From positions 1-63,939 of the IMG/VR virus record IMGVR_UViG_3300024310_000002: a stretch of 63,939 nucleotides of DNA, one strand, 5' to 3'. A program made the translations under genes and the position numbers. This stretch comes from a virus (taxonomy: Duplodnaviria; Caudoviricetes). Below the pieces are notes generated by a model that was given only the letters and a program-made list of their open reading frames with translations, had not been told where the DNA came from and made no database searches. Positions 29,644 to 59,969 of this stretch are shown one piece after another. Numbering within the stretch: the stretch's first letter is position 1; each line of letters opens with the position of its first letter.

Positions 29644-29649
29644 TACAGG

Positions 29650-45309: not shown

Positions 45310-45338
45310 TTGACTTACAGAGTTTAGTATGGTAATAC
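45310..45338 (+). promoter_or_regulatory. sigma70-type early promoter
   Basis: TTGACT-17 nt-TAATAC with TG extended -10, in an AT-rich island. Confidence 0.7.
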
Positions 45339-45454
45339 CATCGAACGATTAAGGCAGCTCGCCACATTGTTGTGCTCGACTTGGGCAAATAAGGCAGCAA
45401 CGCCACATTCGTGGAACCTTAATCACCCACCATTGGGTAACCTTCGGAGGTAAC

Positions 45455-45730
45455 ATGCCAGCCAAACGCAAGCATAAGCTCTTCATTCCCTTCAGGCCGG
45501 GCGATCGTGTTGGCCCACTGTACTCCAGCTCGGCGGACAAGTTCGGCACGTTCGTGTCGTACGTAAAGAACGTGCCGCGCTACTGTGTCGTGCACTTCGA
45601 CGGTGAGGTGCATCCACGCAAGGTTGCGTCTCGTTCCCTTCGTCTCGTGCCTGTTGAAATCCCGGCCGATGCGCATGTCGATGCGCCTTGGTACAGTGTG
45701 AGAAAGGAAGCGAATGATCCCGATGCTTAA
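45455..45730 (+). CDS. Small hypothetical protein (SH3/Tudor-like)
   Basis: GGAGG RBS; FRPGDRV...VVHFDG. Confidence 0.65.
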   Translation: MPAKRKHKLFIPFRPGDRVGPLYSSSADKFGTFVSYVKNVPRYCVVHFDGEVHPRKVASRSLRLVPVEIPADAHVDAPWYSVRKEANDPDA

Positions 45731-45959
45731 CGTGTCCTACCGCAAGGTGGGTGGCCTGCGCTTCGTGCGTATCGGCAAGCTGGGCTTCAGTTGGTACATC
45801 ACCAACAAGCCGGCGCGCACTCATGACGCGTCGCGCACATATCCGAATGGCGACGTCATGCTGCCACCGCTCAAGCGTGGCGGCCCCATCCTCGACGACG
45901 TGAAGTATTACCGCGAGTACGAAGGCGGCAGCACCGTGGTGGTGTATCGTGACCGCTAA
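45714..45959 (+). CDS. Hypothetical protein
   Basis: AAGGA RBS; RKVGGLRFVRIGKLGFSW. Confidence 0.6.
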   Translation: MIPMLNVSYRKVGGLRFVRIGKLGFSWYITNKPARTHDASRTYPNGDVMLPPLKRGGPILDDVKYYREYEGGSTVVVYRDR

Positions 45960-46066
45960 TGCGTTCGCGCTGTACTGGTTCGTTATGTTCCCTGCCGCAT
46001 TGTTGTGTCTTCAGTATGGCTGGGACATGTTGTTGGATGATCTCGTGCCAATCAAGGAGGTGGGCG

Positions 46067-46297
46067 ATGCAGATTAACTGCTGCACCGGTGAGGTGTACG
46101 CCATGAGCAAAGCGATCGCCGACGGCGAGGAGCTTGAGCTCACGACGCTGGCTCCGATGTCGTATTCCGTGCTCTGCTGGAATACGAAGGAGGACGAGTG
46201 CCGATGGGTTAAGGACTTCGGCAGCGACCTCGCCGCTGCGGTCGCAGAGTACAACCGTTGGGCGCTCAACAAAGAGCGCGTGCCGAAGTTCAACTAA
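46067..46297 (+). CDS. Hypothetical protein
   Basis: AAGGAGG RBS. Confidence 0.6.
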   Translation: MQINCCTGEVYAMSKAIADGEELELTTLAPMSYSVLCWNTKEDECRWVKDFGSDLAAAVAEYNRWALNKERVPKFN

Positions 46298-46321
46298 CCA
46301 TCGAACCTGAGGGAGGATCAA

Positions 46322-46486
46322 ACGGCTACCCACAAGCGTGTTACCTTGCGGGTAATGCTCACTGTGCCGGTCGCAGATGACCGCGCCACGGTGGGCCGCA
46401 AGGTCAAAGAGGCACTCACCGATAAGTTCGAGGTGTGCTACCCCTACGTCACCGTCATTCAGGAGGACAATGTCGAGCAGGCATAA
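46322..46486 (+). pseudogene. 54-codon ORF with ACG in place of ATG
   Basis: GGGAGG RBS, 5 nt, ACG GCT ACC... open to TAA. Confidence 0.45.
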
Positions 46487-46894
46487 AGCCTCTCGCTGGC
46501 AGGAGGAAGCCGAGGGTCGGCCGGCTTCTGCGCCCCAACAACTGGGTTAAGAACGAGGCGTCGATCCCACGCCTACAATGCCAGCAAACCATCGCACCAT
46601 CAAAGCGCCGCACAATGCGGCCAAGCTCAAACGCGAGGCTAGGGCGTCAAGCCACTCCAAACGTAGAAGCGCACTCACGACGCCCCGACGGGCCATCTGT
46701 CCACGATGTCAACTTGGATGCCGGCAACTGCAAAGTGTTGCACGGACCACGGTCACCGCTTGGCCGTCCATATCTGCTGGATAGCAGTCCCGGCCTGCGG
46801 CGGGTTATTCCGCAGGAGCTATTCCGTGCACGACACGGTGATGGGCCTGCGATCCCTCTTGGGACAAAGCAGCCAACTAAGGAGTGCCTACAAT

Positions 46895-48016
46895 ATGACC
46901 GACCACAACGATCCCTCTTTCACGGGGGTCGTTGACCCCTCCATCCTCAACGTCGATGCAGACACTGGCATCCCGACGTTCCTGCGGCGTCACGAAGAGC
47001 ACCACGCGCAGCATGCGCCGGTGTTTACCACGCAAGTGGACGAGCAAGGGCAGACGGAACTCACGGTCGAAGAGCAGCAGTACGCTGCCGAAGACCCGGA
47101 GGCTGACATGCCTGTGCACGAAGGCGAGCAGGTGCTGGCTGCACTGCCGGATCAGCCGGACGTTCAGACTGCGGTGAGCCAGGAAGCGATCGAAGAGGTC
47201 GTTACCTCTGCGGGTAACGAAGCTCTCGTGAGCAACGCGCCGAGCGAAATGGAGAAGGCCAACGAGGAGGAACTTCCTCCGACCAACCACAACCAACCCG
47301 CCGATCCCGCGGAGATGCGCCGGGATTTCTTCAAGGATATCAACAAGTTCGGCAAGGCGTCTGGCGAAGGTGCCAGCGCGCTGGGTCGTCTGGGGCTTCG
47401 CGCACTCAGGGCGGCCGCGGACGGTGTGATCTCGACGGCCAAGCCGCAAGGTGGCGGCAAGGACGACGCGACGCTGATCTACGAAGCGTACACTGCCATG
47501 GATAGCAAGCACGCCGAGCACACTGCGGGTGGTGCCAAGGCCAACGCGAGCAAGCTGCGGCAGATCATCGGCATGGGCTGTATGACCACGCTGAGCGATC
47601 CTGTGGCCGTCGGCGATCGGGTCGTGCGTATCCATGACCAGATGTCGGAGGCCGATCTCAAGCCGAAGGCGATCTTCGCTGCACTGGTGGACGTGGCACG
47701 CGAGCAGCAGGCCAGCGACAGCGAGCTGACCGACGACGCGATCCGCGCATGCCTGACCAAGACCAAGGCCGACAAGACCTTGGAGAAGGAGTGGGAGGCG
47801 ATCGCGAAGAAGGTCGAGGGACTTGTCACCGGCGAGAACTCGCATGGTCTCAAGGACCAGAGCGAAGCGGCGATCAAAATTCAGGAGCTGGTCACCGAGC
47901 ACATCAAGAACTACAAGCTCGACGGCACGCGACAGGATCGCATCGACAGCATGATCGACCTCGGATACTCTCGTGCTCAGGCTGAGGCGATCGTGGACAA
48001 GAAGATCGCGGTCTAA
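46895..48016 (+). CDS. Hypothetical protein, acidic N-terminus and helical C-terminus
   Basis: TAAGGAG RBS; strong phage-like codon bias. Confidence 0.8.
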   Translation: MTDHNDPSFTGVVDPSILNVDADTGIPTFLRRHEEHHAQHAPVFTTQVDEQGQTELTVEEQQYAAEDPEADMPVHEGEQVLAALPDQPDVQTAVSQEAIEEVVTSAGNEALVSNAPSEMEKANEEELPPTNHNQPADPAEMRRDFFKDINKFGKASGEGASALGRLGLRALRAAADGVISTAKPQGGGKDDATLIYEAYTAMDSKHAEHTAGGAKANASKLRQIIGMGCMTTLSDPVAVGDRVVRIHDQMSEADLKPKAIFAALVDVAREQQASDSELTDDAIRACLTKTKADKTLEKEWEAIAKKVEGLVTGENSHGLKDQSEAAIKIQELVTEHIKNYKLDGTRQDRIDSMIDLGYSRAQAEAIVDKKIAV

Positions 48017-48024
48017 CGATCTAA

Positions 48025-48099
48025 CGCAGGGTAGCTCAGTGGTAGAGCTCGGGCCTCATAAGCTCGCGGTCGGCGGTTCGATCCCGCCCCCTGCAACCA
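48025..48099 (+). tRNA. tRNA-Met(CAT), C1:A72 mismatch (initiator-like)
   Basis: CGCAGGG/CCCTGCA, D-arm GCTC/GAGC, loop CTCATAA, GTTCGATCC, encoded CCA. Confidence 0.92.
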
Positions 48100-48248
48100 A
48101 GCTACCTCGTGCAGGGCCCCCCATGCCCTCCAAACTGCACGAGGCAAGAGCGGGAGTGGCGGTGCGTTCAACCCAATCAGGCCCCCATCTGGAAGGGTTG
48201 CATCTGTCCTTGGATGTTGCATCGCCACTCCCGTACTGTTCACCATCG

Positions 48249-48377
48249 GACCACGTAGTGTATTAATGCACGCGCGCTGACGCCCTTTGACGTCATGTTA
48301 GGTCGTTCCTGCTAGTCTCGACCGACAGCACGAGAGCAGGTGCGCCGAAGTACAAGGCAAACCCTGCCGTGGTCTCA
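48249..48377 (+). ncRNA. tRNA-framed RNA 1
   Basis: GACCACG/CGTGGTC, TA, GTGT/GCAC, enlarged anticodon arm, GCAGG/CCTGC with enlarged T-loop. Confidence 0.65.
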
Positions 48378-48519
48378 TAGTGCACAGTTACCGCGGGGTG
48401 GCGGGTATCCACTCAAGCGCCGGACCGACGGCGTTAAGGTGATAGAGGCGGGGTTGGGTTAATGCCCAGCTTGTGCTCCACCATCGGTGAGATTTAAACG
48501 CGCACTCACGCGCGCCCAA

Positions 48520-48708
48520 TACATCGTAGCTCAAAAGAAGAGCGGCCGCATAGGGCAGAGTGGTTCTCAAGGCCCTTGAGCACAGGCCATCACTACCCGC
48601 ATGCAGCTCTAGAGGTACGGCATGTGGACAGGTGGCGGCACTAAATCTCACGGAAGATGTTCGGGGACATGGCAACATGTTTCAAAACCCACCCGGACCG
48701 ATGTACAA
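48520..48708 (+). ncRNA. tRNA-framed RNA 2
   Basis: TACATCG/CGATGTA, TAGCTCAA..GAGC, ~110-nt central insert, GAT, GTTCGG/CCGGAC. Confidence 0.65.
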
Positions 48709-48710
48709 GT

Positions 48711-48805
48711 TTCACCGTAGCTCAACGTAGCTTGAAGAGCACCGACGGACTGGTTCAAATCCCTCCGTGGTTATGTATGGTGAAGCGCCCATGCCGGTGA
48801 AAACA
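48711..48805 (+). ncRNA. tRNA-framed RNA 3
   Basis: TTCACCG/CGGTGAA, TAGCTCAA..GAGC, central arm capped by GGTTCAAATCC, GTATGG/CCATGC. Confidence 0.65.
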
Positions 48806-48843
48806 GATGCACTTGAGTTGGCTACGCCACCTCAGTGCAAAGA

Positions 48844-48999
48844 ATGCACGTAGTTCAATTGGCCTACCGAACCCATGGGGTCGTAGAACAACTGATTGCT
48901 GCGATCGCGTATGCGTGACCAGACCAAGGCTGTCGGTAAGTAATGGCGGCATATCAATCAGGGTAGATGCAGAGCCTAGCCAACTCTGCCGTGCATACC
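48844..48999 (+). ncRNA. tRNA-framed RNA 4
   Basis: ATGCACG/CGTGCAT-ACC, TAGTTCAA..GAAC with D-loop insert, CTGATTG/CAATCAG, GAT, GCAGAG/CTCTGC. Confidence 0.7.
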
Positions 49000-49013
49000 T
49001 TTGGAGGTAACAA

Positions 49014-49220
49014 ATGCCGTGGCCACATGACATCGATAGCATCATCGAAACGTTTCCTCACCTGATCGGTAAAACCATCGCAAAGGTGACCGCCGATTGT
49101 GGTAGCGTCGACAACGATGGAACGTACTACTCTGTATTGTTCGAGTTCATCGACGGCACCAAGCTGGCTGTCACTGAGGGTGGACAGGCAGGGTACATCG
49201 AGATGGAAGAGCGGCGATGA
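49014..49220 (+). CDS. Hypothetical protein
   Basis: GGAGG RBS inside palindrome. Confidence 0.7.
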   Translation: MPWPHDIDSIIETFPHLIGKTIAKVTADCGSVDNDGTYYSVLFEFIDGTKLAVTEGGQAGYIEMEERR

Positions 49221-49510
49221 AATGCCCCGACGGCTGGGAAGTTCACGACTATCGCTGGCTGGTGAAGCAGGAGATGGTCACTGAGGACAGGTGGCTGTTG
49301 ATGTTCTTCAACGTGCTAGATGCCAGCGACAGAAACTATCCAGCTGGCTGGATCAATATCATGTTCGACAAATGGTCGAACGACGGCGCAGGCAAGAAAG
49401 CCTATCGTGAATTCGCCATGCAGGATGGTGGTATACTCGAGATAGAGTGCATCGCGATGGAGTGGCGCAAGGAAATCTTGGAAGGGCGCACTCACGAGGC
49501 CGCGCCATGA
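49217..49510 (+). CDS. Small protein, LEIEC C-terminal family
   Basis: DGGILEIECIAMEWR. Confidence 0.7.
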   Translation: MKCPDGWEVHDYRWLVKQEMVTEDRWLLMFFNVLDASDRNYPAGWINIMFDKWSNDGAGKKAYREFAMQDGGILEIECIAMEWRKEILEGRTHEAAP

Positions 49511-49764
49511 CTGTGTGGGTGCACACAGCGTTCATGCATGGTTCATGGGAGACGCGCAAGGAGCAGCTCGGGCAGTACTTGCTATATTGCTGCCGCCGTC
49601 CGCCGGGGCACGTACGAATTTCGGGTTTTCCGTATGGCCATGTCTATGTCATACTCGGCGAGAACACTAGCGGCAAGATAGTCGAGCACTACCGCATCGA
49701 GGACGATGGCCCACTGGAGATAGAGTGCATCGCGCACGAGATGCGTACAAAGTATTCCCCGTAG
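49507..49764 (+). CDS. Small protein, LEIEC C-terminal family
   Basis: DDGPLEIECIAHEMRTKY; ATGA coupling. Confidence 0.7.
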   Translation: MTVWVHTAFMHGSWETRKEQLGQYLLYCCRRPPGHVRISGFPYGHVYVILGENTSGKIVEHYRIEDDGPLEIECIAHEMRTKYSP

Positions 49765-49908
49765 CTCAAATACCGGACTGGCATCCGGCACGTCAAGAGC
49801 AGAGCCGACGACACGCGAAAGGAAAGGCACGATGCGGGTGCATCCTGTTCCGAGTACGACGACGGAGCGAAAGGCTCGATGCAGCATGGTAACCTGCCGG
49901 GGTAACCA
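49755..49908 (+). ncRNA. tRNA-framed RNA 5
   Basis: CCCCG/CGGGG, TAGCTCAA..GAGC with D-loop hairpin, GAGCC/GGCTC with ~65-nt insert, GAT, GCAG/CTGC, ends ACCA. Confidence 0.7.
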
Positions 49909-49918
49909 ACACTAAGTG

Positions 49919-50029
49919 GCACCGTAGCATAATAGCGATAATGCGACCGCTGGATTAAGCAGCTTTAGCCCTGCACAATAGTGTCGGGCGAGTGGAGCCC
50001 CAGCGCGGAGAAGTAGGAACTGCCGGTGC
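49919..50029 (+). ncRNA. tRNA-framed RNA 6
   Basis: GCACCG/CGGTGC, TA, GCAT/ATGC, CGCTGG/CCAGCG with insert, minimal T arm GTAG/CTGC. Confidence 0.6.
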
Positions 50030-50103
50030 GGGTGAGGACGTCGAGATAAGCTCGTCGGTCTAGAAGGCCACCGGGCCTCACCACTAAATCATAGGACCAT
50101 AAA

Positions 50104-50373
50104 ATGCCGCAATGGGAGTATTACTCCGAGGACTGGGAAGTCTGGAATGAGACGCTCCCTTCAGGCAAGCACATGTCTGCGTATAGACACCCGGACGGAT
50201 ATGTGTGGCCAGCAAACATTACAGCCATGCCCGGGGGTTGGATCAACGTCAAGCCGTACGCGGACTGTCGGTTCGGCGACGAGCTCGAAAAGAACATGCT
50301 GCCGCCAGAGTGCAGCTGGCTTGAGATCGAATGCGTCATGCACGAGATGCGTGCCAAGTATGGAGGAGCGTGA
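50104..50373 (+). CDS. Small protein, LEIEC C-terminal family
   Basis: SWLEIECVMHEMRAKY. Confidence 0.7.
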   Translation: MPQWEYYSEDWEVWNETLPSGKHMSAYRHPDGYVWPANITAMPGGWINVKPYADCRFGDELEKNMLPPECSWLEIECVMHEMRAKYGGA

Positions 50374-50600
50374 TGCGTGTCTACACTAGAGACCTTCCGG
50401 ATGCTCAGACGTGGATCACCAAGGCCCTATTGCTGGGCGCCCACATCGAGCAGTACGCAGAGGAGATCAACTCTCGTCAGTGGAAATACGGTGTAGGTAC
50501 GGGTGGCTCATTTCCAGAAATCACAGACGACTGGCTAGGCCGTGCGTGCAAGAAATTCGTTGAGCTATTGCAGGAGGAGCAGGAGAATGTCGTCAAGTGA
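50373..50600 (+). CDS. Small protein, N-terminal TKALLLG family
   Basis: GGAGG RBS; WITKALLLGA. Confidence 0.7.
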   Translation: MRVYTRDLPDAQTWITKALLLGAHIEQYAEEINSRQWKYGVGTGGSFPEITDDWLGRACKKFVELLQEEQENVVK

Positions 50601-50681
50601 AGCACTCGAGTATGCAGTGTTGTCGGCTTGCGCACTCATGCTCGCCGGCGCCGCGGGGTTCTGGCTGTTGATGGTGGCGTG

Positions 50682-50933
50682 ATGGATGCTAAAGCGAAGC
50701 TTCCGTTCGCCGAACAGCAAGAACTATACGTCACGCGGTGCATGATGCTTGGCGCCATGTTCAAATACGACGACTACGGCCATCCCGAGAGAGCGTCGGC
50801 GCGAAAATACTGGCAATGTATTGTGTCTGGGCCGCTTCGTGACGGCATGTCGTACTCTCGAATAGGCTTCGGCTACGATCAAGCAGACGCAGCGTACGAT
50901 TACCTGCGGAGGTACCATCTGGAATTGCTTTGA
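50682..50933 (+). CDS. Small protein, N-terminal TKALLLG family (divergent)
   Basis: YVTRCMMLGA...GYDQADAA. Confidence 0.6.
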   Translation: MDAKAKLPFAEQQELYVTRCMMLGAMFKYDDYGHPERASARKYWQCIVSGPLRDGMSYSRIGFGYDQADAAYDYLRRYHLELL

Positions 50934-50937
50934 GAGA

Positions 50938-51141
50938 TCGCGCGTAGCTCAATGACTGCTGGGGGCATGTGCTCCTAGAGCGAGAGCGGGCAGGTGTCAG
51001 CCTTCGCCATGCGCTGCAGCGCCTCTGACAAGGAAGTCACGCCAAAGAGCGGCCTACAGAACGTTAGTAAGGACCACAAGTCCCGAAACCAATCGAGGCA
51101 AATGACGATGTAGGAGGTGGTCGCCCCTGCCGCGCGAACAA
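50938..51141 (+). ncRNA. tRNA-framed RNA 7
   Basis: TCGCGCG/CGCGCGA-ACAA, TAGCTCAA..GAGC with D-loop insert, ~120-nt central insert, GAT, GTAGG/CCTGC. Confidence 0.7.
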
Positions 51142-51157
51142 TACCCACGGAGGTAAC

Positions 51158-51376
51158 ATGGCTTACTTGAGATTTCGTAACATGATCATGACCCCAACTA
51201 TCTGGGCACTCGTGACTGAGCTTACTGCGAGGGTGCTCGGCGTGCAGACTTCGTGGAGGATATGGGTGCTGATTGTGGTGTCTTGTTTGGTGCAGGACTT
51301 CATCGATGCAGTGGTCGAAGATCGTCCTGTGGCCGGTCCGTATCGCTGGAAGAAGCGCCCCTCCTCGAAGGAGTAG
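51158..51376 (+). CDS. Small membrane protein
   Basis: GGAGG RBS; hydrophobic segments. Confidence 0.6.
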   Translation: MAYLRFRNMIMTPTIWALVTELTARVLGVQTSWRIWVLIVVSCLVQDFIDAVVEDRPVAGPYRWKKRPSSKE

Positions 51377-51379
51377 CAC

Positions 51380-51670
51380 ATGACCGAAGCACCATCGGAC
51401 GATGAAGTGCTCGTCACGAAGTGGCTTATGGTAGGGGCTGTACTGTGGGAGAGCCCGAACGGTACATGGTTCGCGATCATGCCGGGGAATAATGAACACT
51501 CGTTCGCGTTTAACACGTCGGGTGAAACACCGGCTCAAGCCGTTAGTAGGTTCGTCAAGGAATACGGTAAGCATATAGGAGATATGCCGTGGCTCGTACC
51601 GTTACTCGAACACGTGAAGTCTTCGACGAGTTCAGACCTTGGCCCTACTCCACCCCATACGGCACAGTGA
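51380..51670 (+). CDS. Small protein, N-terminal TKALLLG family
   Basis: AAGGAG RBS; LVTKWLMVGA...GETPAQAV. Confidence 0.7.
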   Translation: MTEAPSDDEVLVTKWLMVGAVLWESPNGTWFAIMPGNNEHSFAFNTSGETPAQAVSRFVKEYGKHIGDMPWLVPLLEHVKSSTSSDLGPTPPHTAQ

Positions 51671-51734
51671 CGATCACTGAGGTCGTTGTCCCCACGCCTA
51701 GAGCGAAAGCAAAGGCGCCACGCAAGGAGAAGAA

Positions 51735-52106
51735 ATGCAAGTTTGTATATCCACCCGAGATTGCCGCGCTGCTGTCGGGGCGGCCATCGCAGCCCTTATC
51801 CAGAAAGTCGCCAGCGACAAGGAGGCAGTCACCAAGACAAGCCTCGACAATCTCCTCACCGGCGCCATCCACAACGGCCTCGACGTGAACGAGGCGCGTC
51901 GCAAGGAGATGACCGAGATGGTCGATCGCGATGTCGAGCACATGATGAAGTCGCACCCGGGCAACGAACTGCTTCAGGTGCTCAACAACTACGTCGACAT
52001 GCTCGCCTACCACAAGGGTGAGTTCATCACGATCGATGATCAGGACTTCTCGCTGATCAAGGCGCACCTGCCGGCCGGCGAGAAGAGCGAAGAGATCGCG
52101 GCGTAA
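51735..52106 (+). CDS. Hypothetical protein
   Basis: AAGGAG RBS. Confidence 0.7.
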   Translation: MQVCISTRDCRAAVGAAIAALIQKVASDKEAVTKTSLDNLLTGAIHNGLDVNEARRKEMTEMVDRDVEHMMKSHPGNELLQVLNNYVDMLAYHKGEFITIDDQDFSLIKAHLPAGEKSEEIAA

Positions 52107-52121
52107 CCTTTGGAGGTAACA

Positions 52122-53010: not shown

Positions 53011-53013
53011 AAG

Positions 53014-53388
53014 ATGAACCATATCAGATGGGCGGCGTGGGGCGTGATCGACATCGAGAAAATCCCGAGCGATCATACCTCCGGAGGTAACGGTCAGGCG
53101 CGCCGCGAGTACCTCAAGAAGGTGCGTCAAGAGCTGTCGGAGCTCAACATGATCCTCCATGTAGGTGGATCGAAGCCGGCCCCGTGGTATGCTGTGGCGC
53201 GTCGTGGGGAAGAGAAGAACTCTATGGTGTCAGCTGGCCATGACGCGTTCAAAAAGCTCTGTGCGTGGGTGCTCGAGCACGTGGGAGATGTGAATGTCAG
53301 CGGTGAGGATGGTGGCGTACGGAGTGCTGGAGATGAAGCACAAGGAGAGCCCGGCGTCGCTGTGGCTAAGCGAGCAGTCTCCCACTGA
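53014..53388 (+). CDS. Hypothetical protein
   Basis: GGGAG RBS; resembles next gene (AWGVID/AYGVLE, VRQELS/VKDELS, FKKLC/FKECC). Confidence 0.6.
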   Translation: MNHIRWAAWGVIDIEKIPSDHTSGGNGQARREYLKKVRQELSELNMILHVGGSKPAPWYAVARRGEEKNSMVSAGHDAFKKLCAWVLEHVGDVNVSGEDGGVRSAGDEAQGEPGVAVAKRAVSH

Positions 53389-53686
53389 GCAAGAGCGCCT
53401 GCGTCAAGAGGACTTCGAGCGCGATCAGCTGCGCAAGCTGGTGAAGGACGAGCTGTCCCGATACGGACTTAATATAGTTCGCAGCGTCGTACCTACTGGC
53501 AACAAGTTTCGCACGCGCGCCAATATGCACACGCTCTACGGTCAGGTGCAGGGGAGCGCGCTGTTCAAGTCGCGACCCGTGCTCAAAGAGGGTACGTTCA
53601 AAGAGTGCTGCGAGGTCGCAGCGAAGTTGCTTGACGAGCTCGATGCAGCTCAAGTACCGGATGTGAAGACGTCCCCACCCCTATAG
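53294..53686 (+). CDS. Hypothetical protein, probable paralogue of 53014..53388
   Basis: GGAG RBS; shared motifs. Confidence 0.6.
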   Translation: MSAVRMVAYGVLEMKHKESPASLWLSEQSPTEQERLRQEDFERDQLRKLVKDELSRYGLNIVRSVVPTGNKFRTRANMHTLYGQVQGSALFKSRPVLKEGTFKECCEVAAKLLDELDAAQVPDVKTSPPL

Positions 53687-53740
53687 GGGAGTACCCGGAC
53701 GCCGCTGCCGGGAGTATCAGCGGATACCCACAGAGGTAAC

Positions 53741-54028
53741 ATGGCAAAGAAGAAGCGTACGAAGGCAGAGCGCAGTGCAGCTGCCAAGGCATTCTGGGCA
53801 CGGAGGAAAGCAGCAGCTCTCCCCAGTCCGGTGTCGGCAGAGGTGCGTGTCGCGCTCGACGAAGCGGTCAAGACGGTGTTCGTTACACCGCCGAAGATCG
53901 GCTACGCCGTCAAGGAAGGCGTCGACATCTTCATCTGCTTCGGAGAGGACGGCTCGCTGCGTCGCGAGCGTGTCAGCTTGGAGCTGGCGAAGAAGGTCTA
54001 CATGGACCTCGCCAAGATCGTGGTCTGA
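53741..54028 (+). CDS. Hypothetical protein with basic N-terminus
   Basis: GAGG RBS; RSAAAKAFWARRK. Confidence 0.7.
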   Translation: MAKKKRTKAERSAAAKAFWARRKAAALPSPVSAEVRVALDEAVKTVFVTPPKIGYAVKEGVDIFICFGEDGSLRRERVSLELAKKVYMDLAKIVV

Positions 54029-54060
54029 TAACCATCGAAGCGTCACAGGAGAGGACGAGA

Positions 54061-54303
54061 ATGAGCTTTGCACTTTGCCCCGATGAAGGGCCGCCTCGCT
54101 TGTGGCGCTTCGTTGACGAGAGCCTTGGCTGGGGGCGCGACGGTCTGCCGGTCGCCGCCATCCTCAACTCCAAGGAGAACATCCTGAAGATTGACCGCGT
54201 CTGTTACGAACAGCTGGGAGAGCTGGAGCAGCACATGCTTCTGCGCACTCACCGGCGCTTCGTGTACGCCAGCGGTCGCATCGGCATCCATCTCAACGAC
54301 TGA
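54061..54303 (+). CDS. Hypothetical protein
   Basis: GAGGA RBS. Confidence 0.55.
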   Translation: MSFALCPDEGPPRLWRFVDESLGWGRDGLPVAAILNSKENILKIDRVCYEQLGELEQHMLLRTHRRFVYASGRIGIHLND

Positions 54304-54337
54304 CTACCAACCACCTACCCAACAGGAGAAACTACCA

Positions 54338-55474
54338 ATGCGTCTCATGGATTTGCGTCAGGCTGTCGTGGACAACATCGACGCGCGAATTGCCACCCAT
54401 CTGCAGAGCCCTCCCGGCATCGGCAAGTCGGACTTCGTCGAAGGGCTCGTGGCATGGCTCAACAAGAAAGACGGCAAGCAGCCGGACGGCAGCGATACGT
54501 GGGGGCTCGCGACGTGCTTCCTCGCGACGTTCACGCCGACTGATCTTCTGGGGTACATGGTACCCACGAAGGTAAACAACCCTGACGGCAGCGTGAGCCT
54601 CGCGTCGGTCTTCACCACGCCGTCGTGGATGATGACCAAGCCGACCAAGGAGTATCCGCACGGCCGGCACATCAACACGTTCAAGCGCGGGATTGTTTTC
54701 CTCGACGAGTGGTCGCAGGCTGACGGCGACACGAAGAAGGCCGCGGCGCAGCTCAAGCTCAAGGGCGAGGTCGGGCCTCACAAGCTTCACGATGGCATCG
54801 CCGTGATCAGCGCAGGCAATCGCAAGGACGACCGGTCTGGTGTCACGAAGGAGTTCGACTTCGTCATCAACCGTGAGCAGCGCATCGACATCCACCCGGA
54901 CTTCGCCTCGTGGGAGCACTGGGCGGTGAACAACAACGTCATGCCTCTCACCATCGCCTTCGCGCAGCAGAACCCGCAGATCGTGTTCGAGGACAAGGTG
55001 CCCGCCGAGCAGGGACCGTGGACCACGCCGCGCTCACTGGTGGCTGTCGATCGTCTTCTGCAGGTGAAGATGAAGCGCAACGGCGGCGAAATCCCGGAGA
55101 GCCCCGAGGTGGCCGAGCAGCTGATGGGGATCATGGGCGCGGGCTCCGCGCAGTACATGAGCTTCATCAAAATCCAGCGCGAGATGCCGAAGTACGCGGA
55201 CATCGTGAAGGACCCGGCCGGCGTCAAGGTGCCGGGCAAGCCAGATGCGCAGATGCTGGTGTGCTATCAGCTGGCACACGAGATCAAGAACAAGGACGCT
55301 GCGCAGATCATCGAGTACATCGAGCGCCTGCCCAAGGAGTTCGCTGTCACCTTCGCGACCACGGCATGTAAGAAGAACATGTCGCTGGTATCGGAGAAGG
55401 CGTTCGACACGTGGGCTCGCCAGAACTCTTCGCTGATGGCGGCGATCGCGCTGAGCTCGAAGCAGCAGTCGTAA
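54338..55474 (+). CDS. MoxR/AAA_5-like AAA+ ATPase
   Basis: SPPGIGKS, DLLG, FLDE, AGNR..D, TPRS. Confidence 0.88.
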   Translation: MRLMDLRQAVVDNIDARIATHLQSPPGIGKSDFVEGLVAWLNKKDGKQPDGSDTWGLATCFLATFTPTDLLGYMVPTKVNNPDGSVSLASVFTTPSWMMTKPTKEYPHGRHINTFKRGIVFLDEWSQADGDTKKAAAQLKLKGEVGPHKLHDGIAVISAGNRKDDRSGVTKEFDFVINREQRIDIHPDFASWEHWAVNNNVMPLTIAFAQQNPQIVFEDKVPAEQGPWTTPRSLVAVDRLLQVKMKRNGGEIPESPEVAEQLMGIMGAGSAQYMSFIKIQREMPKYADIVKDPAGVKVPGKPDAQMLVCYQLAHEIKNKDAAQIIEYIERLPKEFAVTFATTACKKNMSLVSEKAFDTWARQNSSLMAAIALSSKQQS

Positions 55475-55480
55475 GAGTAA

Positions 55481-55648
55481 GGGGCGTAGATCAAGTAGAT
55501 CATAGGCCGGGCCTTCATAGGGCACCGCGCGCTTAGATGCAGGTACAGTCGCTCTCGGATAGGTGATGTCCTCACAGGATTAGACGTTGGCTTAACAGCT
55601 CTAAACGTCCCACTGAGTTCCGAGTACCGTAGCCCTGCCGCCCCACTT
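55481..55648 (+). ncRNA. tRNA-framed RNA 8 (insert in T-loop)
   Basis: GGGGCG/CGCCCC, TA, GATC/GATC, TAGGC/GCTTA, GAT, GCAGG-[~90 nt]-CCTGC. Confidence 0.7.
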
Positions 55649-55680
55649 CTACCCACGACAAGTAACCCACGGAGGTAACG

Positions 55681-55902
55681 ATGCGCTTCGGCACATACAT
55701 GATCATCGGCAGCTTGCTCGCCGGGTTTTGTTACGGAAGTCTTATCCGTGACGTTCATGCTCGCTGTCCCAAGCAGAGGATAGAGTTCGACTGGACCATG
55801 GTGCAGCTGACACTTGTGTGGCCCGGTCTCTTCGTCGCTGCGGTCATGATGCCTGACAACCTGAAGGCCCAGCCAAAGCCAGCGTGCAAGGAGGACTTCT
55901 GA
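55681..55902 (+). CDS. Small two-TM membrane protein
   Basis: GGAGG RBS; two hydrophobic segments. Confidence 0.65.
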   Translation: MRFGTYMIIGSLLAGFCYGSLIRDVHARCPKQRIEFDWTMVQLTLVWPGLFVAAVMMPDNLKAQPKPACKEDF

Positions 55903-55903
55903 G

Positions 55904-56128
55904 ATGGCATACACGATCACAATCGAGCTGCGTGTCGACTTCGATACGGCCAACGTCAAGATCAAGAACCCGATGATGCTGAAGCTGGCACGGCAGTCGG
56001 CGCGCGAACTCCTCACCCGCGCGATGATGATCCAAGACCAGCGTGCCCCCAGCATCATGATCACCGACGGTGATTTCTTCTCGGAGAGCAAGGATGTCGC
56101 AGTCTTCGGAGACGACGAAGAGGGCTGA
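55904..56128 (+). CDS. Hypothetical protein
   Basis: GGAGG RBS. Confidence 0.68.
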   Translation: MAYTITIELRVDFDTANVKIKNPMMLKLARQSARELLTRAMMIQDQRAPSIMITDGDFFSESKDVAVFGDDEEG

Positions 56129-56450
56129 GCTCCTCGCGCTGGGCTACCCCGAACAGATGTTCCATAACGACTACTACACTGCACAGGTGACTGAGACGCA
56201 TGGAGTGTGCGTGGCCGCCATGCTCAACACGATCTTCGTGCAGTTCTTCCCATGGGGTAGCCGGTGGCTATCGTCTGATGACGGCCACGGGCGCTACGCC
56301 AGCTTCATCTGCGGGCAAGCGACATCGCTCGAAGACAAGTACAAAGACCTGCCCTACTTCAAGACGGGGCCGGACACCGACATCCTAACCATCAAATGCC
56401 TTATCGAAGAAGGGATTGAACAATGCAGACTATCAAGCAAGTCGCTCTGA
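56094..56450 (+). CDS. Hypothetical protein with weak versions of both small-protein motifs
   Basis: TKRAELLALGY at N-terminus, ILTIKCLIEEG at C-terminus. Confidence 0.6.
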   Translation: MSQSSETTKRAELLALGYPEQMFHNDYYTAQVTETHGVCVAAMLNTIFVQFFPWGSRWLSSDDGHGRYASFICGQATSLEDKYKDLPYFKTGPDTDILTIKCLIEEGIEQCRLSSKSL

Positions 56451-57730
56451 CGCCGCAGCAGGAGAAGCTGTGGAGCGATACGCGCGCCGCCCTGATCTGG
56501 CACTGCCCGGCGTTCTCGCACATCTTCTACAGCATGCTGCAGAACACTGGCAACAAGCAGAACGCCGTGTTCACGGATGATCCCGCGATCCCGATCGCTG
56601 CAACCGATGGCAACAACCTGATCTTCAACGTCGGGCCGAAGGGGTTTTTCAGGTTCAACCTGAACCAGCGCGTGTTCATCGCGAGCCACGAAATTCTCCA
56701 CTGCATCTTCAATCACTGCGGCATTACGTTCATGCTCAAGATGCGCGGCAAGGTGGCGTACGCCGACGGCAAGACGCTGCCGTTCGACGCCGAGCAGATG
56801 AACATGGCCGAGGACTATGTCATCAACGCCATCCTAAGCGAGAGCAAGGTGGGGCAGTTTCCGACCGACGAGAACAATCAGCCGTTGGGCCTGCTGGATG
56901 CAGCCATCGCAACGTCGAAGGACAACTCGCTGGACATCTACCGGAAGATTTTCAAGCAGTCGAACAGCGGCAAGGGAGGCGGTAAGGGGAGCCAGCCGGG
57001 CCAAGGCAAGGGACGCTTCGACGTGCATCTCGATCCCGGCACCTCGATGGGTCAGGACCCGGTGTCGGCGAACAACAACAGAAATCCGGCGCAGTGGGAC
57101 ACGGAAGTGGCTGCGGGTATTGCAGCGGCCAAGGCAATGGGTAAACTGCCGGCCGAGTTGCAGCGCGCACTCACGGACATCCTCACACCGAAGGTCGATT
57201 GGCGTGAACACATCAAATCGCTCTTTGCTCGCAAAGTTGGTTCTGGGGCTTTTGACTGGGCTCGCCCTGATCGTCGGCTTATCACTCGTGATATCTACGC
57301 GCCCGGACGATCTGGTTTTGGTGCTGGCACTGTGGTGGTTGGTATTGATACCTCCGGCTCAGTTGGTAGCAAAGAGCTGGACATGTTTATGGCTGAGGTC
57401 TCAGGTATCCTCGAAGAGATCAAGCCCAAGCGCCTCGTGATGATCTGGTGCGATGCGGCTGTGAACCGCATCGACGAGTGTGAAGACATCAGCGACCTGA
57501 ACACGATCCGGCGCAAGGGCGCTCCGGGTGGTGGCGGCACGAGCTTCATCCCGGTGTTCGAGGCAGTCGCGAAAGAGGGGCTGGAGCCGGAAGCTCTCGT
57601 ATACCTCACCGATGGCATGGGTAGCTTCCCGCGTGCGGCGCCGGCGTACCCGGTGATCTGGGGCAACATCTACAAGGGCTCGAAGTATCCTTGGGGTGAC
57701 GTCGTCGACATCCCGAAGCAGGTGGAGTAA
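56423..57730 (+). CDS. DUF2201-type metallopeptidase-VWA protein
   Basis: IAATDG, HEILH, NMAEDYVIN; MIDAS IDTSGSV, GGGGTSF, LTDG. Confidence 0.88.
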   Translation: MQTIKQVALTPQQEKLWSDTRAALIWHCPAFSHIFYSMLQNTGNKQNAVFTDDPAIPIAATDGNNLIFNVGPKGFFRFNLNQRVFIASHEILHCIFNHCGITFMLKMRGKVAYADGKTLPFDAEQMNMAEDYVINAILSESKVGQFPTDENNQPLGLLDAAIATSKDNSLDIYRKIFKQSNSGKGGGKGSQPGQGKGRFDVHLDPGTSMGQDPVSANNNRNPAQWDTEVAAGIAAAKAMGKLPAELQRALTDILTPKVDWREHIKSLFARKVGSGAFDWARPDRRLITRDIYAPGRSGFGAGTVVVGIDTSGSVGSKELDMFMAEVSGILEEIKPKRLVMIWCDAAVNRIDECEDISDLNTIRRKGAPGGGGTSFIPVFEAVAKEGLEPEALVYLTDGMGSFPRAAPAYPVIWGNIYKGSKYPWGDVVDIPKQVE

Positions 57731-57764
57731 CCCCGCTAAGTAACCACCCAACAGGAGAACGTGT

Positions 57765-58160
57765 ATGAAGAAGATAAGCAGAGAGCAGCTGAAGTACGCC
57801 CAGAACCGGCTGTACGACATCAAGAGCAAAGAATGGCAGGAGCTGGAGAAGACTTGCTGGGTGGCGGCGACCGCTGATCCGCTCACCTTCAAGGAGGCGA
57901 TCGAGGCAATCAAGAAAGGAAAGGTCAAGCCGCGCACCAAGACGCTCGGCGGCCTCCCTATGAACCAGCTAACGCTGTCGAAGAGCACGCGCGTTATCGA
58001 GCTGTTTGAGCTCGAGATCAGCGAGCGCAAGTTCGACCACAAGAAGTCGGAAGCGAACCTGAAGGTTCACGAGGCAAAGTGGGACAGGATTTTCGATCGG
58101 CTCTTCCTTGGCGATGCCGAAGAGATCATGAAGCTGATCGCGGACAGCGATAAGAGCTAA
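57765..58160 (+). CDS. Hypothetical protein
   Basis: AGGAG RBS. Confidence 0.7.
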   Translation: MKKISREQLKYAQNRLYDIKSKEWQELEKTCWVAATADPLTFKEAIEAIKKGKVKPRTKTLGGLPMNQLTLSKSTRVIELFELEISERKFDHKKSEANLKVHEAKWDRIFDRLFLGDAEEIMKLIADSDKS

Positions 58161-58293
58161 GGGGGCAGTAGTCAAAGAACCCCTCAGCCGCGGTGGCAAC
58201 GGGAGGGCCGTGCACATCTCACGGTGAACAAGGCAGAGCTCGGGGCCCCCACGCGAAAGCGCAACTTCCCGCTAAGCTCTGCAAGCCACCACA
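58161..58293 (+). ncRNA. Compact multi-pseudoknot RNA candidate
   Basis: GGTGGC/GCCACC, CGGGAG/TTCCCG, GCAGAGCT/AGCTCTGC, GGGGGC/GCCCCC, CCGTG/CACGG with crossing pairings. Confidence 0.5.
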
Positions 58294-58318
58294 ATTCCCT
58301 ATACCCACGGAGGTAACT

Positions 58319-58774
58319 ATGGGCTGCGACATCCATCTCGTGTTGGAACAAAAGCACAACGGCAAGTGGATCGGCTTGCGCGAAATGTCACACACGTTCG
58401 AGTTCAGGAAAGACCCTGAGGACGGTAAGTGGCAGCAGCATTACGTCTGGTGCAACGCGCGCCGCAGGAACTATGATCTGTTCGCTCGGCTCGCCGGTGT
58501 CCGAGGGGATGGGCCTGACGCGAAAGGCATCCCCGAGGACGCATCGGAGCTGCCCCAAATGCTATTTGAACACTGGGGTAGCGACGGGCACTCGCATTCC
58601 TACTGTACTCTGGACGAGTACATGGTGGCGCTGGCCGGTACAGAGGACAATCCCGCCGAGGTGTTTCTTGGACCGGACCATCCAGCCGTCAAACATCCAC
58701 ACCAATACTACTTCGGTATGTACGAGCCCGAGGACGGCGAAGAGTACCGTGTGGTGTTCTGTTTCGACAACTGA
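58319..58774 (+). CDS. Conserved phage protein (MGCDIH...RNYxLF..LAGVRG...HSHS...FDN)
   Basis: Recognisable motif set; GGAGG RBS. Confidence 0.8.
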   Translation: MGCDIHLVLEQKHNGKWIGLREMSHTFEFRKDPEDGKWQQHYVWCNARRRNYDLFARLAGVRGDGPDAKGIPEDASELPQMLFEHWGSDGHSHSYCTLDEYMVALAGTEDNPAEVFLGPDHPAVKHPHQYYFGMYEPEDGEEYRVVFCFDN

Positions 58775-58783
58775 GGAAACCCC

Positions 58784-59503
58784 ATGCCAGCAATGCACGA
58801 CAACGTTTATTCCGAGATGATCAAGCAGCTCGAGCGCAAGCGGGACATCTATCTCCGCACGCTGCCGTTCGAGATGACGCACGAAGAGTGCATCCGGTTG
58901 ATCGCTCCGCGCGAGCACATCAGCATCCTCACTGAAGCCGCGAAGTTCGCAGACATCAACGCGTCGGAGGGTTGGGTCACGGTGCAGGTGCCCGGCGAGA
59001 TCGATGGCGTAGTAGCGCCCAAGGTCATGCTCTACATGCGCACTCACGACCAGAAGGCCCCGCCACTGCGGCCGCGCAATGCATGGTGGCAGTGGCCCGA
59101 AGACGTCGCCGGCAAGAAAGTGATCGACTGGATGCAGAAGCGCTACGAAATCGGGAGGCGCTTTGGCACCGTGCAGCACGTGCTCCATATGCTGAACAGA
59201 GGGTGCGAGAGTGGGCATCAGCTACGGTACATGTTCCCCGCTGCAATGCATCTCTGCAAGGCGGGTCGCGATCCACGCATGGACAAGTGGATGGAGAAGT
59301 TCGCAGCATACAAAGCCTGCAAGCACACACCTGCTGTGTCCCCAGAGCTTAAGAGGGCGATCCAAGACAGTAGCGCGCTGTTGACGTCGGCCGCTCTACT
59401 GGGTGAGGATGTCCCCATTCCGTTGGAGGCGTACGTGGCGATTTCGCCAGCCAACTACATGGAATGCTTCAAGATAGACGGCCACACCGTCGCACGTATG
59501 TAA
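58784..59503 (+). CDS. Hypothetical protein
   Basis: GAGGA RBS; 239 aa. Confidence 0.75.
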   Translation: MPAMHDNVYSEMIKQLERKRDIYLRTLPFEMTHEECIRLIAPREHISILTEAAKFADINASEGWVTVQVPGEIDGVVAPKVMLYMRTHDQKAPPLRPRNAWWQWPEDVAGKKVIDWMQKRYEIGRRFGTVQHVLHMLNRGCESGHQLRYMFPAAMHLCKAGRDPRMDKWMEKFAAYKACKHTPAVSPELKRAIQDSSALLTSAALLGEDVPIPLEAYVAISPANYMECFKIDGHTVARM

Positions 59504-59609
59504 CGAAAACGGCGGGCTCCCAAGGAAGAACCCGCCGTCCGTCTCCCACCCACAGGAGGCGCTTCTCGCGAAGCCCTCCTAACGTAAGTTACCCGAGGAG
59601 GTAAGTCAA

Positions 59610-59969
59610 ATGGGCGACAACAAGGATACGCAGTCATCTGCCGCGACCGTGGATGATATCGCGGCGATCATCGACCCGAAGGCTTTCATAATCCCGAACT
59701 CCAAGCGCTTCGAGATAGTGGACAGGCAGCGTGACGCGCGCACCAAAGCGGCGGCTATTCTCGCCCTAGTTGGTGAACCGCAGACAGCGCCACAGCTCGA
59801 CCCGGAGCGCGTCGCTCGGATCATTTGTCGGCAAGACGTTCCGTACAATTGGCAAGGCAAAAACCGAGATGCTTGGGTCGAGATACAGTGGAAGGGATAT
59901 CTCCCAAGAGCCAACGCCTTAATCGCGGATTTGACCGCTTCAGCACATTCGCGCCCAGAGGGAAAGTGA
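59610..59969 (+). CDS. Hypothetical protein
   Basis: GGAGG RBS. Confidence 0.65.
   Translation: MGDNKDTQSSAATVDDIAAIIDPKAFIIPNSKRFEIVDRQRDARTKAAAILALVGEPQTAPQLDPERVARIICRQDVPYNWQGKNRDAWVEIQWKGYLPRANALIADLTASAHSRPEGK

Follow-up and report, generated by a model that had tools for sequence, protein, structure and literature searches.

The record IMGVR_UViG_3300024310_000002 (Duplodnaviria; Caudoviricetes), whose full length of 63,939 bases is referred to here as the window, is complete, carries direct terminal repeats and has a G+C content of about 60%; it represents a complete podovirus-like phage of 64 kb in whose genome an 18-base palindrome, GTTACC-N6-GGTAAC, is repeated many times. The arms of this motif are conserved as sequence and not as a pair, and the RNA hairpin that they can form is minimised where it covers a Shine-Dalgarno (SD) sequence. 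What purpose, then, does the palindrome serve? The reading preferred here, which is put forward tentatively and as possible rather than probable, is that the motif is a dyad-symmetric site on double-stranded DNA for a candidate dimer, probably encoded by the phage, and that at gene junctions this site has been overlaid on the stop codon of one gene and the SD sequence of the next.

When a site is defined as a match with no more than two mismatches over the twelve arm positions, the window holds 32 sites, against 1.4 expected from Markov resamples. A 20-mer form of the dyad finds 29 matches against 1.18, reversed-pattern controls find none, and the 15-mer ACCCACGGAGGTAAC, the form in which the palindrome had originally been noticed in this sequence, finds 25 at up to three mismatches, against a mean of 1.41 and a maximum of 6 in 100 shuffles. 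Five copies are perfect, four of them intragenic and one (44435) intergenic. Altogether 17 of the 32 copies are intragenic, nine copies lie in the late region (10-44 kb) and both arms of the genome are occupied, with a site density about three times higher in the early region, which runs on the plus strand from about 44.8 kb across the record end to 9.8 kb, than in the late region.

Ten of the 32 copies end 0-7 nt upstream of a start codon, nine on the plus strand (3121 to 59588) and one on the minus strand (29649, before ATG 29643). The last spacer bases are GGA or GA in nine of these copies, so that the right arm is overlapped by GGAGG or GAGG, and at 29649 a G-run takes its place. The spacer CACGGA is found at 3121, 51140, 55662 and 58300. 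The left arms of these start-fused copies read GTAACC or xATACC, with 59588 alone keeping GTTACC. Each of these features had been described in the original prediction, which held that the palindrome is fused to the SD sequences of about ten genes, that its ribosome-binding copies have a weakened left arm and that the perfect copies are intragenic or intergenic; the sites and start codons that it named, the distances between them, the fourfold spacer and, with the exception of 59588, the weakened arms were all verified in the sequence. The range that it gave, 45437-59610, does contain real sites, and these prove to be one part of a genome-wide family. Approached from the genes, GGTAAC stands within 20 nt upstream of the start of nine of them, and eight of the nine also have the left-arm core, TACC or AACC, at the right spacing, the exception being the gene at 8569; genes were called with a crude caller of our own, on which all site classes depend.

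Occurrence in the phage lineage and its hosts

Across 12 related sequences there are 238 sites against about 7.6 expected, a total that pools related genomes and in which orthologous sites are counted repeatedly. The relatives were found through their ATPase, polymerase and capsid proteins and by the motif pattern, and they include Rhizobium phage RHph_TM27A together with prophages in Bradyrhizobium and Xanthobacteraceae assemblies. They form a lineage of alphaproteobacterial phages with 20-50 sites per genome. For instance, G001, a 63-kb contig of about 75% DNA identity to the window, has 30 sites, the near-complete contigs G004 and G005 have 20 and 53, respectively, and several fragments also carry sites; RHph_TM27A has 44, many of them perfect, with the consensus GTTACCT-N4-AGGTAAC. 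The divergent regulatory gap holds two copies in the window and three each in G001 and RHph_TM27A. Nucleotide searches of a phage collection with the window returned no relative and a match to the tRNA only. Searches with its proteins led to RHph_TM27A and its kin, four nearly identical Rhizobium phages whose gene order is the same, the portal being 57.7% and the ATPase 39.9% identical to those of the window. An exact-pattern scan of viral contigs, which is no census of the motif, gave mostly single, chance-level matches among those listed. Searches on RHph_TM27A, the motif hexamers and Rhizobium phage palindromes, in literature other than subscription journals and supplements, found no description of the motif.

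Relatives of the capsid protein in bacterial assemblies comprise one phage-sized Bradyrhizobium contig and integrated elements in Bradyrhizobium, Pseudolabrys and Xanthobacteraceae contigs, with 17-31 sites each that lie mainly in the early region and are often start-fused. In one Bradyrhizobium contig (L183:3486-5162, G012 C166) a 559-aa large serine recombinase follows directly after the primase gene and host-kind (non-phage) Pfam genes lie beyond it, and the lineage therefore includes temperate members. At the corresponding position the window has two genes of no assigned function (8569-9492 and 9482-9808) and no recombinase, and scans with PHROGs and Pfam detected no integrase in the window phage. 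In the RHph_TM27A record (MN988461.1) 14-bp attL and attR features are marked and the primase-helicase homologue, of 1027 aa, is labelled 'putative integrase', a label that seems doubtful because the window homologue matches DUF927 and the primase/helicase PHROGs. As a separate observation, a Pseudolabrys metagenome-assembled genome (G009 contig C4, 465 kb) has two copies each of the capsid and polymerase genes at a distance of 61.9 kb, which points either to prophages in tandem or to a circular phage genome assembled as a concatemer.

Might the motif belong to the regulon of a host transcription factor? In five host-genome assemblies (3.3-8.7 Mb) perfect copies occur at 12 places, 11 of which are on contigs carrying phage genes, and the 8.7-Mb Bradyrhizobium assembly has no perfect copy. 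The perfect copies are thus nearly confined to phage contigs, a host regulon is therefore unlikely, and this candidate was rejected. Within the lineage there are also motif-poor members, in which no alternative palindrome was found. In contig L010, one of them, 11 early genes of the window have homologues arranged in the same order, and 10 of these genes belong to the conserved core set; the contig carries 1 site in 20 kb plus two degenerate remnants.

Conservation of arms and of pairs

The 238 sites fall into 63 start-fused copies, which end 0-12 nt before a start codon, 63 that are otherwise intergenic or at gene ends, and 112 (47%) that are intragenic. Given that coding DNA makes up about 76-97% of the 12 sequences, gene boundaries are strongly favoured, though nearly half of the sites are intragenic. 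Within the 112 intragenic copies the left arm is conserved as G81 T94 T110 A112 C110 C103 and the mirrored right arm as C76 A103 A103 T110 G108 G103, and the mirror symmetry reaches position 7 (C41/T60) against position 12 (G43/A59). From centre to centre, the invariant cores TACC and GGTA are separated by 10 bp, or one helical turn; the half-site is RGGTAAC and the spacer is free. Mirror arms, cores one turn apart and a free centre are, judged on the bases themselves, the anatomy expected where a homodimer reads its site on double-stranded DNA.

The intragenic copies are read as V-T-x-x-G-N in 81 cases, as L-P-x-x-V-T in 28 and in other frames in three, the proteins that contain them being unrelated, which looks like a nucleotide word imposed on tolerant protein loops. 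An alignment with G001 that spans the site is possible for 15 of the 32 window sites, of which 12 are kept there, with identities at the aligned sites of 160/180 for the arms, 72/90 for the spacers and 1740/2264 for the flanks.

An alternative is that the motif acts as an RNA-level translational operator, in which a hairpin or a protein-bound stem includes the SD sequence and a phage factor or an upstream ribosome sets some ten early genes together. Such an operator would suit the position of 10 of the 32 window sites and 63 of the 238 family sites just before a start codon, the location of the SD sequence within the right arm, the resemblance of the left arm (ACCT/ACCC) to the anti-SD sequence and the variation of hairpin strength with site class, and in several genomes, where the motif forms the whole intercistronic junction with a modal gap of 15 nt, it would suit translational coupling. 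An operator of this kind is nevertheless unlikely, and the evidence that bears on it comes from the pattern of substitutions. Sites were oriented by the transcribed strand and pairing was counted formally on 150 of 157 sites from six sequences. There is no covariation, the score being 0.105 against 0.107 in shuffles (298 of 500 shuffles as high), and paired cells amount to 82.3% against 82.6% in shuffles. At the commonest variable pair (3/16) there are 37 A-A and 12 T-T combinations and not a single compensated A-T. Neither is there a sense-strand preference for G-U, with 53 single transitions to G-U in the RNA against 60 of the mirror-image A-C kind, which form G-U on the antisense strand only, and among start-fused sites the trend is reversed (13 G-U against 26 A-C). 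Even the seventh 'pair', Y on the left and R on the right, occurs at the frequencies expected under independence. The pairing potential is fully explained by independent conservation of the arms, and the apparent stem is therefore two independently conserved half-sites. These data separate conservation of arm sequence from conservation of the pair, two readings whose separation lay beyond the reach of the original prediction.

The folding energies add to this. A hairpin that sequesters the SD sequence would be expected to keep its pairing by compensatory or wobble changes and to place a stable stem over the SD sequence; the pairing is not kept in this way, and the start-fused copies of the window fold with merely -1.6 to -3.8 kcal/mol, weaker than the intragenic ones, and with a loop that is not conserved. 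Across the family the mean is -3.1 kcal/mol for start-fused sites against -4.4 kcal/mol for the others (Mann-Whitney p 9e-6). Rfam has no family matching the motif, its match in the window being to the tRNA only, and an operator in RNA leaves aside the 112 of 238 copies that are intragenic and mirror-symmetric, many of them in late genes on the opposite strand. Of the two functions that had been proposed at the level of translation, a tuned hairpin is accordingly without support, given the absence of covariation and of a G-U bias and the weaker folds at starts. A protein-binding site for coordinated translational control fares differently in its two parts: a protein site is the best-supported idea, whereas the anatomy does not speak for a translational operator restricted to about ten ribosome-binding sites, pointing instead to sites on double-stranded DNA that are spread genome-wide and are intragenic in 47% of cases.

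Gene junctions and the exchange of small genes

How the site is accommodated at gene junctions can be seen from its mismatches. In start-fused copies there are 0.24 mismatches per site in the right arm and 1.25 in the left, against a balanced 0.62 and 0.55 in intragenic copies. A change of T to A at left-arm position 3, which both disrupts the middle of the stem and creates TAA, is present in 35 of 126 boundary sites and 2 of 112 intragenic ones. The left-arm TAA closes an open reading frame (ORF) of at least 100 codons in 19 of 59 xTAACC sites, the right-arm TAA in 2 of 59; at site 52103, for instance, the TAA at 52104-52106 is the stop codon of the upstream 123-aa gene. The weakened left arm reads better as selection against an occluded SD sequence and, in part, as the use of the left-arm TAA as an upstream stop. 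In several relatives the motif fills the intercistronic junction completely, left-arm stop through ATG, the commonest gap being 15 nt, and in the window, G001 and G006 motif-led genes come after long gaps, with medians of 182, 123 and 101 nt, respectively. Two side observations concern gene ends and ribosome-binding sites. At the end of the 151-aa gene (58770-58786) the window has TGA followed by GGAAAC, which looks like the remnant of a collapsed site, and a Bradyrhizobium relative (G011 contig C42, about 45300-45340) has a full motif at the end of the same gene, with its TAA as the stop codon. C/A-rich, G-poor tracts of the CCACC kind often precede the motif as well as other ribosome-binding sites.

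A simpler proposal would be that the motif acts in cis only, as an intercistronic linker TAA-CC-N6-GGAGGTAAC-ATG that combines a stop with a strong ribosome site, is spread by gene conversion with no trans factor, and has left its other copies as decayed or accidental ones. The left-arm TAA used as a stop, the modal 15-nt distance from stop to start and the perfect GGAGG of most start-fused copies in the window agree with such a linker. It is improbable all the same, as the best copies, the perfect ones, are intragenic or intergenic and not at ribosome sites, as intragenic copies are kept at orthologous places despite diverged flanks, and as the left arm, which an SD sequence does not need, is retained, eight of the nine GGTAAC-led genes having its core. 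Two further ideas about the start-fused copies were dropped. One was recognition of CACGGAGG in the manner of CsrA or RsmE, which was given up because relatives use spacers without GGA; to our knowledge the Rhizobiales have no CsrA. The other was the resemblance of the arms to the 3' region of 16S rRNA, which holds a GGTAACC stretch, and this was set aside as coincidence because the spacing differs.

The motif-led genes are unusually variable among close relatives, which raises the question of whether the palindrome takes part in their exchange. Contigs of four soil-metagenome runs that contain related strains were aligned to 44000-63900, and stretches left uncovered in single runs were not interpreted. 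Of the 19 joints listed, to which the counts refer and beyond which 27 further joints exist, four have their start no more than 2 nt from a motif edge, and in three of these exactly one motif-led gene is lost. The joint 49012>49217 (one contig, run X2) removes exactly the 68-aa gene behind site 48994; at 51138>51379 (one contig, run X2) site 51140 and its 72-aa gene are replaced by another motif copy that abuts the next ATG; and 58318>58785 (runs X3 and X5) removes exactly the 151-aa gene behind site 58300. The fourth, 49906>50093 (run X5 contig), skips 49907-50092 from the right edge of site 49889. A comparable picture is given by G001, in which the motif-following window genes at 49014, 51158, 53741, 55681 and 59610 have no match, nor has the gene at 57765, 20 nt after site 57727. 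Of the 11 window-only blocks in this comparison, five are headed by a motif-led gene, against 4 of 33 for other genes (p 0.03), and the genes at 58319 and 58784 are swapped in G001 with a joint that consists of the motif and ATGGGC. The soil joints and the block test are not independent of each other, because the X3 and X5 contigs may be G001-like strains. As a side observation, one contig of run X2 skips 48018-48099, nearly exactly the tRNA-Met gene, so that the tRNA seems to be another dispensable cassette.

The palindrome might on this evidence be a module boundary for recombination, a short shared homology that heads early-gene cassettes and lets promoter-less genes be inserted, deleted or reordered, in the manner of the PeSL cassettes discussed below. 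Besides the skips that run exactly from motif edge to next ATG over genes 49014, 51158 and 58319, the fourth skip, the block heads and the swapped pair, this would agree with the coding capacity of the phage, which includes a PD-(D/E)XK exonuclease, an SNF2 helicase and an endonuclease-family protein (phrog_93; the counterpart in RHph_TM27A is annotated VRR-NUC). Several results speak against it. Nine other ordered genome pairs showed no enrichment of motif-led genes at block heads (13/63 against 57/326), an indel that is precise to the gene has to end at a gene start with or without the motif as its cause, and the right ends of the skips have no motif. Of four gene-sized deletions whose joints are listed, one, 58776>59982, has no motif at its left end, and the conserved intragenic copies and the mirror symmetry are left unexplained. 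Such a boundary function is unlikely as the reason for the motif, the dependence between the two lines of evidence also being to its disadvantage. The original suggestion of a shared microhomology for shuffling cassettes, with breakpoints at the motif, thus finds partial backing in 4 of the 19 joints listed and in the comparison of the window with G001, and none in the nine other pairs.

A combination of the two functions can also be imagined, in which the 20-50 or so dyads per genome would be both operators for genome-wide control of transcription and landing pads that lie between a ready ribosome-binding site and the next start codon, although we regard this double role as doubtful. If it were true, the pads would be where promoter-less cassettes enter, leave and change their order, giving an integron-like platform for expression and exchange without an integron integrase, common to lytic as well as temperate phages of this alphaproteobacterial soil lineage. 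An integron site of the attC/attI type was considered as a separate candidate and rejected, no tyrosine recombinase having been found in the PHROGs and Pfam scans of the window.

Likeness to known systems, the candidate binder and further sites

The closest system is that of the Start-Associated Sequences (SAS) and extended SAS (ESAS) of Cluster K mycobacteriophages. SAS are 13-bp asymmetric words, GGGATAGGAGCCC, repeated 11-19 times per genome, which sit a few bases upstream of the start codons of non-structural genes and include the SD core and sometimes an upstream stop; they are absent from the host genome, and their function is given as unsolved (PMC3203893). For the inverted repeats of the ESAS the authors saw no support for pairing and favoured DNA-binding proteins (PMC3203893). 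A repeated word that is fused to the SD sequence near start codons and absent from the host is common to both systems, and ten window copies lie 0-7 nt before an ATG, nine with GGAGG or GAGG and 29649 with a G-run. SAS occur in one orientation, in the right genome arm only and nearly always at starts (PMC3203893). The present motif differs in sequence, in symmetry, being an 18-bp mirror-symmetric GTTACC-N6-GGTAAC, and in distribution, with 17 of 32 copies intragenic and both arms occupied. The hosts are also different, Actinobacteria for SAS and Alphaproteobacteria for the motif phages.

Stoperators, as found in mycobacteriophage L5 and Cluster A, are many dispersed repressor sites in short intergenic spaces near start and stop codons that act on transcription through many units; they are 13 bp long, asymmetric and orientation-dependent, and are bound by a known immunity repressor. 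The motif resembles them in having many sites at gene junctions and differs in being a symmetric dyad, in a window with no detected repressor or integrase. The stoperators of L5 and Cluster A are mentioned alongside SAS in PMC3203893. Start-fused words are already known in actinobacteriophages, then, and the present motif is an independent and symmetric example from phages of Rhizobium- and Bradyrhizobium-type hosts.

The PeSL cassettes of T4-type phages provide a likeness of another kind. There, repeated regulatory stem-loop motifs flank small non-essential early genes in hyperplastic regions and coincide with insertions, deletions and replacements between close relatives; each PeSL is a strong sigma-70 promoter with a terminator hairpin, and recombination was shown physically by mini-circles (PMC2839356). 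The motif, by comparison, is an 18-bp unit with no excess of promoters, no T-run and a link to indels that is partial only. A scan of 43900-60000 for promoters and terminators, which used an E. coli-type consensus only, found 3 promoter-like sites against 6.2 expected and none at the motif, and no T-run follows it.

Finally, the iterons of the lambda origin are 18-bp dyads with a free centre that are read by a dimer of the winged-helix O protein. They have the same anatomy as the motif, and the identical word is found in an unrelated low-GC phage contig, G007 (L190:3520-3650), where GTTACC-N6-GGTAAC stands four or more times side by side within a Phage_rep_O gene (PF04492, E 8e-31), the copies encoding a repeated V-T-x-L-G-N. 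An array of dyads inside the O-protein gene is the arrangement of the lambda origin, and by this analogy the array is probably the replication origin of that phage; what it establishes for the motif is that the same dyad also occurs where sites for a DNA-binding dimer are expected, and that only. Could the dispersed dyads of the window themselves bind or load the replication machinery, for example the 1050-aa primase-helicase, in place of a single origin? The array in G007, the presence in the window of a DUF927-type primase-helicase in which about 500 aa N-terminal and 300 aa C-terminal to the matched domain have no Pfam match, and the occurrence of sites on both replichore-like arms would be in keeping with a role in replication. 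The window copies are dispersed and often fused to ribosome-binding sites, with no array and a closest pair 169 bp apart (44266/44435), and Pfam finds no Phage_rep_O or other O-type initiator in the window. Coupling to start codons would have no role in replication, and L010 is motif-poor yet has helicase and polymerase homologues, its contig ending before the primase-helicase gene. A replication function is for these reasons very unlikely.

The preferred reading, a double-stranded DNA site for a dimer, can be put as a sequence of steps. A dimer of a phage-encoded protein would read the half-sites RGGTAAC on double-stranded DNA. In tightly packed genes the junction between cistrons would be the only room for it, and the site would become overlaid on expression signals, the upstream TAA often coming from the left half-site and the SD sequence arising from the GG of the right one together with an added GGA or GA. 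The RNA hairpin that a palindrome unavoidably brings would be a cost at such junctions, one that the left-arm changes may lessen. By analogy with stoperators, the action would most likely be transcriptional control of many units at once, as operator or roadblock, and as a side effect the repeated sites would mark, and may promote, the exchange of gene cassettes. Binding by a protein, its phage origin and the effect of binding are what we infer.

Several points weigh against this reading. The family total rests on pooled, partly orthologous sites and on our own gene calls, and the coupling of 63 of the 238 sites to start codons is itself a prediction of an RNA-level signal. An RNA-binding protein that reads the sequence of a stem would likewise suppress covariation, although it would need a mismatch tolerance equal to wobble and a reason for the late-gene copies. 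The site is not consistently beside promoter-sized gaps: in six genomes motif-led genes follow very short gaps, often of exactly 15 nt, and the sites there are therefore not next to promoters. As for the binder, no DNA-binding domain was found in the window, Pfam giving nothing for 57 proteins (E up to 0.01) and nothing relevant at 0.001 for 6 further ones, and PHROGs giving no match of a DNA-binding kind and nothing at all for 89 proteins; nor did either find a repressor-like protein there. The genes beside the regulatory gap of three relatives show no DNA-binding domain apart from one excisionase-type helix-turn-helix, and the first rightward gene belongs to a weakly conserved family of basic proteins with no clear fold signal. 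Since L010 keeps ten of the core early genes but has a single site in 20 kb, none of the conserved core proteins tracks the motif.

Discovery of the binder would delimit a regulon with 20-50 sites in each genome and could explain the swapping of small early genes between soil phages. The lineage has a cultured member, RHph_TM27A on Rhizobium phaseoli, and the question is therefore open to bench work with a harmless system. Gene annotation can use the motif as a practical guide to the true start codons of the lineage. The individual copies in the window are given in Table 1.

Table 1. Copies and variants of the palindrome in the window, with their setting and their state in related genomes.
Feature	Position	Strand	Setting
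Start-fused GTAACC-CACGGA-GGTAAC	3121..3138	+	7 nt before ATG 3146; 137-aa conserved early gene
Start-fused GTAACC-TTCGGA-GGTAAC	45437..45454	+	abuts ATG 45455 (0 nt)
Start-fused CATACC-TTTGGA-GGTAAC	48994..49011	+	2 nt before ATG 49014; 68-aa gene
Start-fused AATACC-CACGGA-GGTAAC	51140..51157	+	abuts ATG 51158; 72-aa gene
Start-fused GTAACC-TTTGGA-GGTAAC	52103..52120	+	1 nt before ATG 52122; orthologous site in G001
Start-fused GATACC-CACAGA-GGTAAC (GAGG)	53723..53740	+	abuts ATG 53741; orthologous site in G001
Start-fused GTAACC-CACGGA-GGTAAC	55662..55679	+	1 nt before ATG 55681; 73-aa gene without G001 match
Start-fused TATACC-CACGGA-GGTAAC	58300..58317	+	1 nt before ATG 58319; 151-aa gene
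Start-fused GTTACC-CGAGGA-GGTAAG	59588..59605	+	4 nt before ATG 59610
Start-fused GTAACC-TCGGGG-GGTAAC	29649..29666	-	5 nt before ATG 29643 of a 588-codon frame; GGGGGG precedes TAAC
5-nt-spacer variant GTTACC-TTGCG-GGTAAT	46340..46356	+	right arm overlaps ATG 46355 of a 43-codon ORF
Regulatory-gap copy CTTACC-CCCGGG-GGTAAC	44266..44283		flanks conserved in five genomes
Perfect intergenic	44435..44452		divergent regulatory gap
Intergenic GTAACC-TGCCGG-GGTAAC	49889..49906		skip in run X5 contig begins at right edge
Intergenic ATTACC-TGCGGA-GGTACC	50899..50916		within 257-nt skip of a run X3 contig
Junction copy GTAACC-CCGCTA-AGTAAC	57727..57744		20 nt before ATG 57765; G001 nucleotide homology stops at 57722
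Perfect intragenic	13324..13341		2466-aa virion protein gene; kept at orthologous G001 place, flanks diverged
Perfect intragenic	26017..26034		412-aa late gene; 18 bases identical to 33300
Perfect intragenic	33300..33317		372-aa late gene; orthologous G001 site
Perfect intragenic	47201..47218		conserved 373-aa early gene; G001 homologue also with perfect copy
Imperfect intragenic	973..990		just past nuclease gene start; kept in G001
Imperfect intragenic	6277..6294		primase/helicase gene
Imperfect intragenic	8136..8153		
Imperfect intragenic	15602..15619		2466-aa gene
Weak intragenic	17141..17158		not kept in G001
Imperfect intragenic	21928..21945		orthologous G001 site perfect
Weak intragenic	36229..36246		portal gene; not kept in G001
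Imperfect intragenic	37981..37998		18/18 bases identical in G001, flanks 68% identical
CATACC-TCCGGA-GGTAAC, 14-bp perfect palindrome	53074..53091		between two called genes, or 5' end of alternative ORF
Weak intragenic	54559..54576		ATPase gene; not kept in G001
Imperfect intragenic	60687..60704		DNA polymerase gene; identical in G001
Imperfect intragenic	61791..61808		DNA polymerase gene; identical in G001 and L142
Imperfect intragenic	63241..63258		exonuclease gene; kept in G001

Two of these sites have conserved surroundings. Site 59588 is shared by the window and G001 together with its upstream flank and the following ATGGGCG, after which a different gene stands in G001, and the flanks of site 44266 in five genomes are GTCCA before it and a C-rich stretch after it (CCCCAC in three).

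The gene map of the window was made with our own simple gene caller and PHROGs, with Pfam for further families. The early and replication genes on the plus strand include a MoxR-like ATPase, a VWA/metallopeptidase protein, DNA polymerase A, the PD-(D/E)XK exonuclease, the SNF2 helicase and the DUF927 primase-helicase, and a single tRNA-Met lies within this region at 48025-48099. The late block on the minus strand, from 10.2 to 37.5 kb, encodes the 2466-aa virion protein, the major capsid protein and the portal; small minus-strand genes extend up to 44.0 kb, and the terminase genes are on the plus strand. The 2466-aa virion protein (11038-18438, minus strand) combines an InPase-family and an LPD39 domain with a DarB-like C-terminal part, and by PHROGs and Pfam scans it is a polyvalent ejected protein and not an RNA polymerase.

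Some minor observations concern the non-coding stretches. The block 44181-44333, which contains site 44266, is the sole part of the divergent regulatory gap that can still be aligned with G001 (80% identity). A G+C-rich hairpin with a leftward T-run lies just left of that site, at 44235-44247, for which a role as leader, small RNA or attenuator of the leftward genes is conceivable. At about 59540-59560, upstream of the polymerase region, there is another conserved word, C-C-C-A-C-C-C-A-C-A-G-G-A-G, which is also present in G001, in L142 and in the motif-poor L010.

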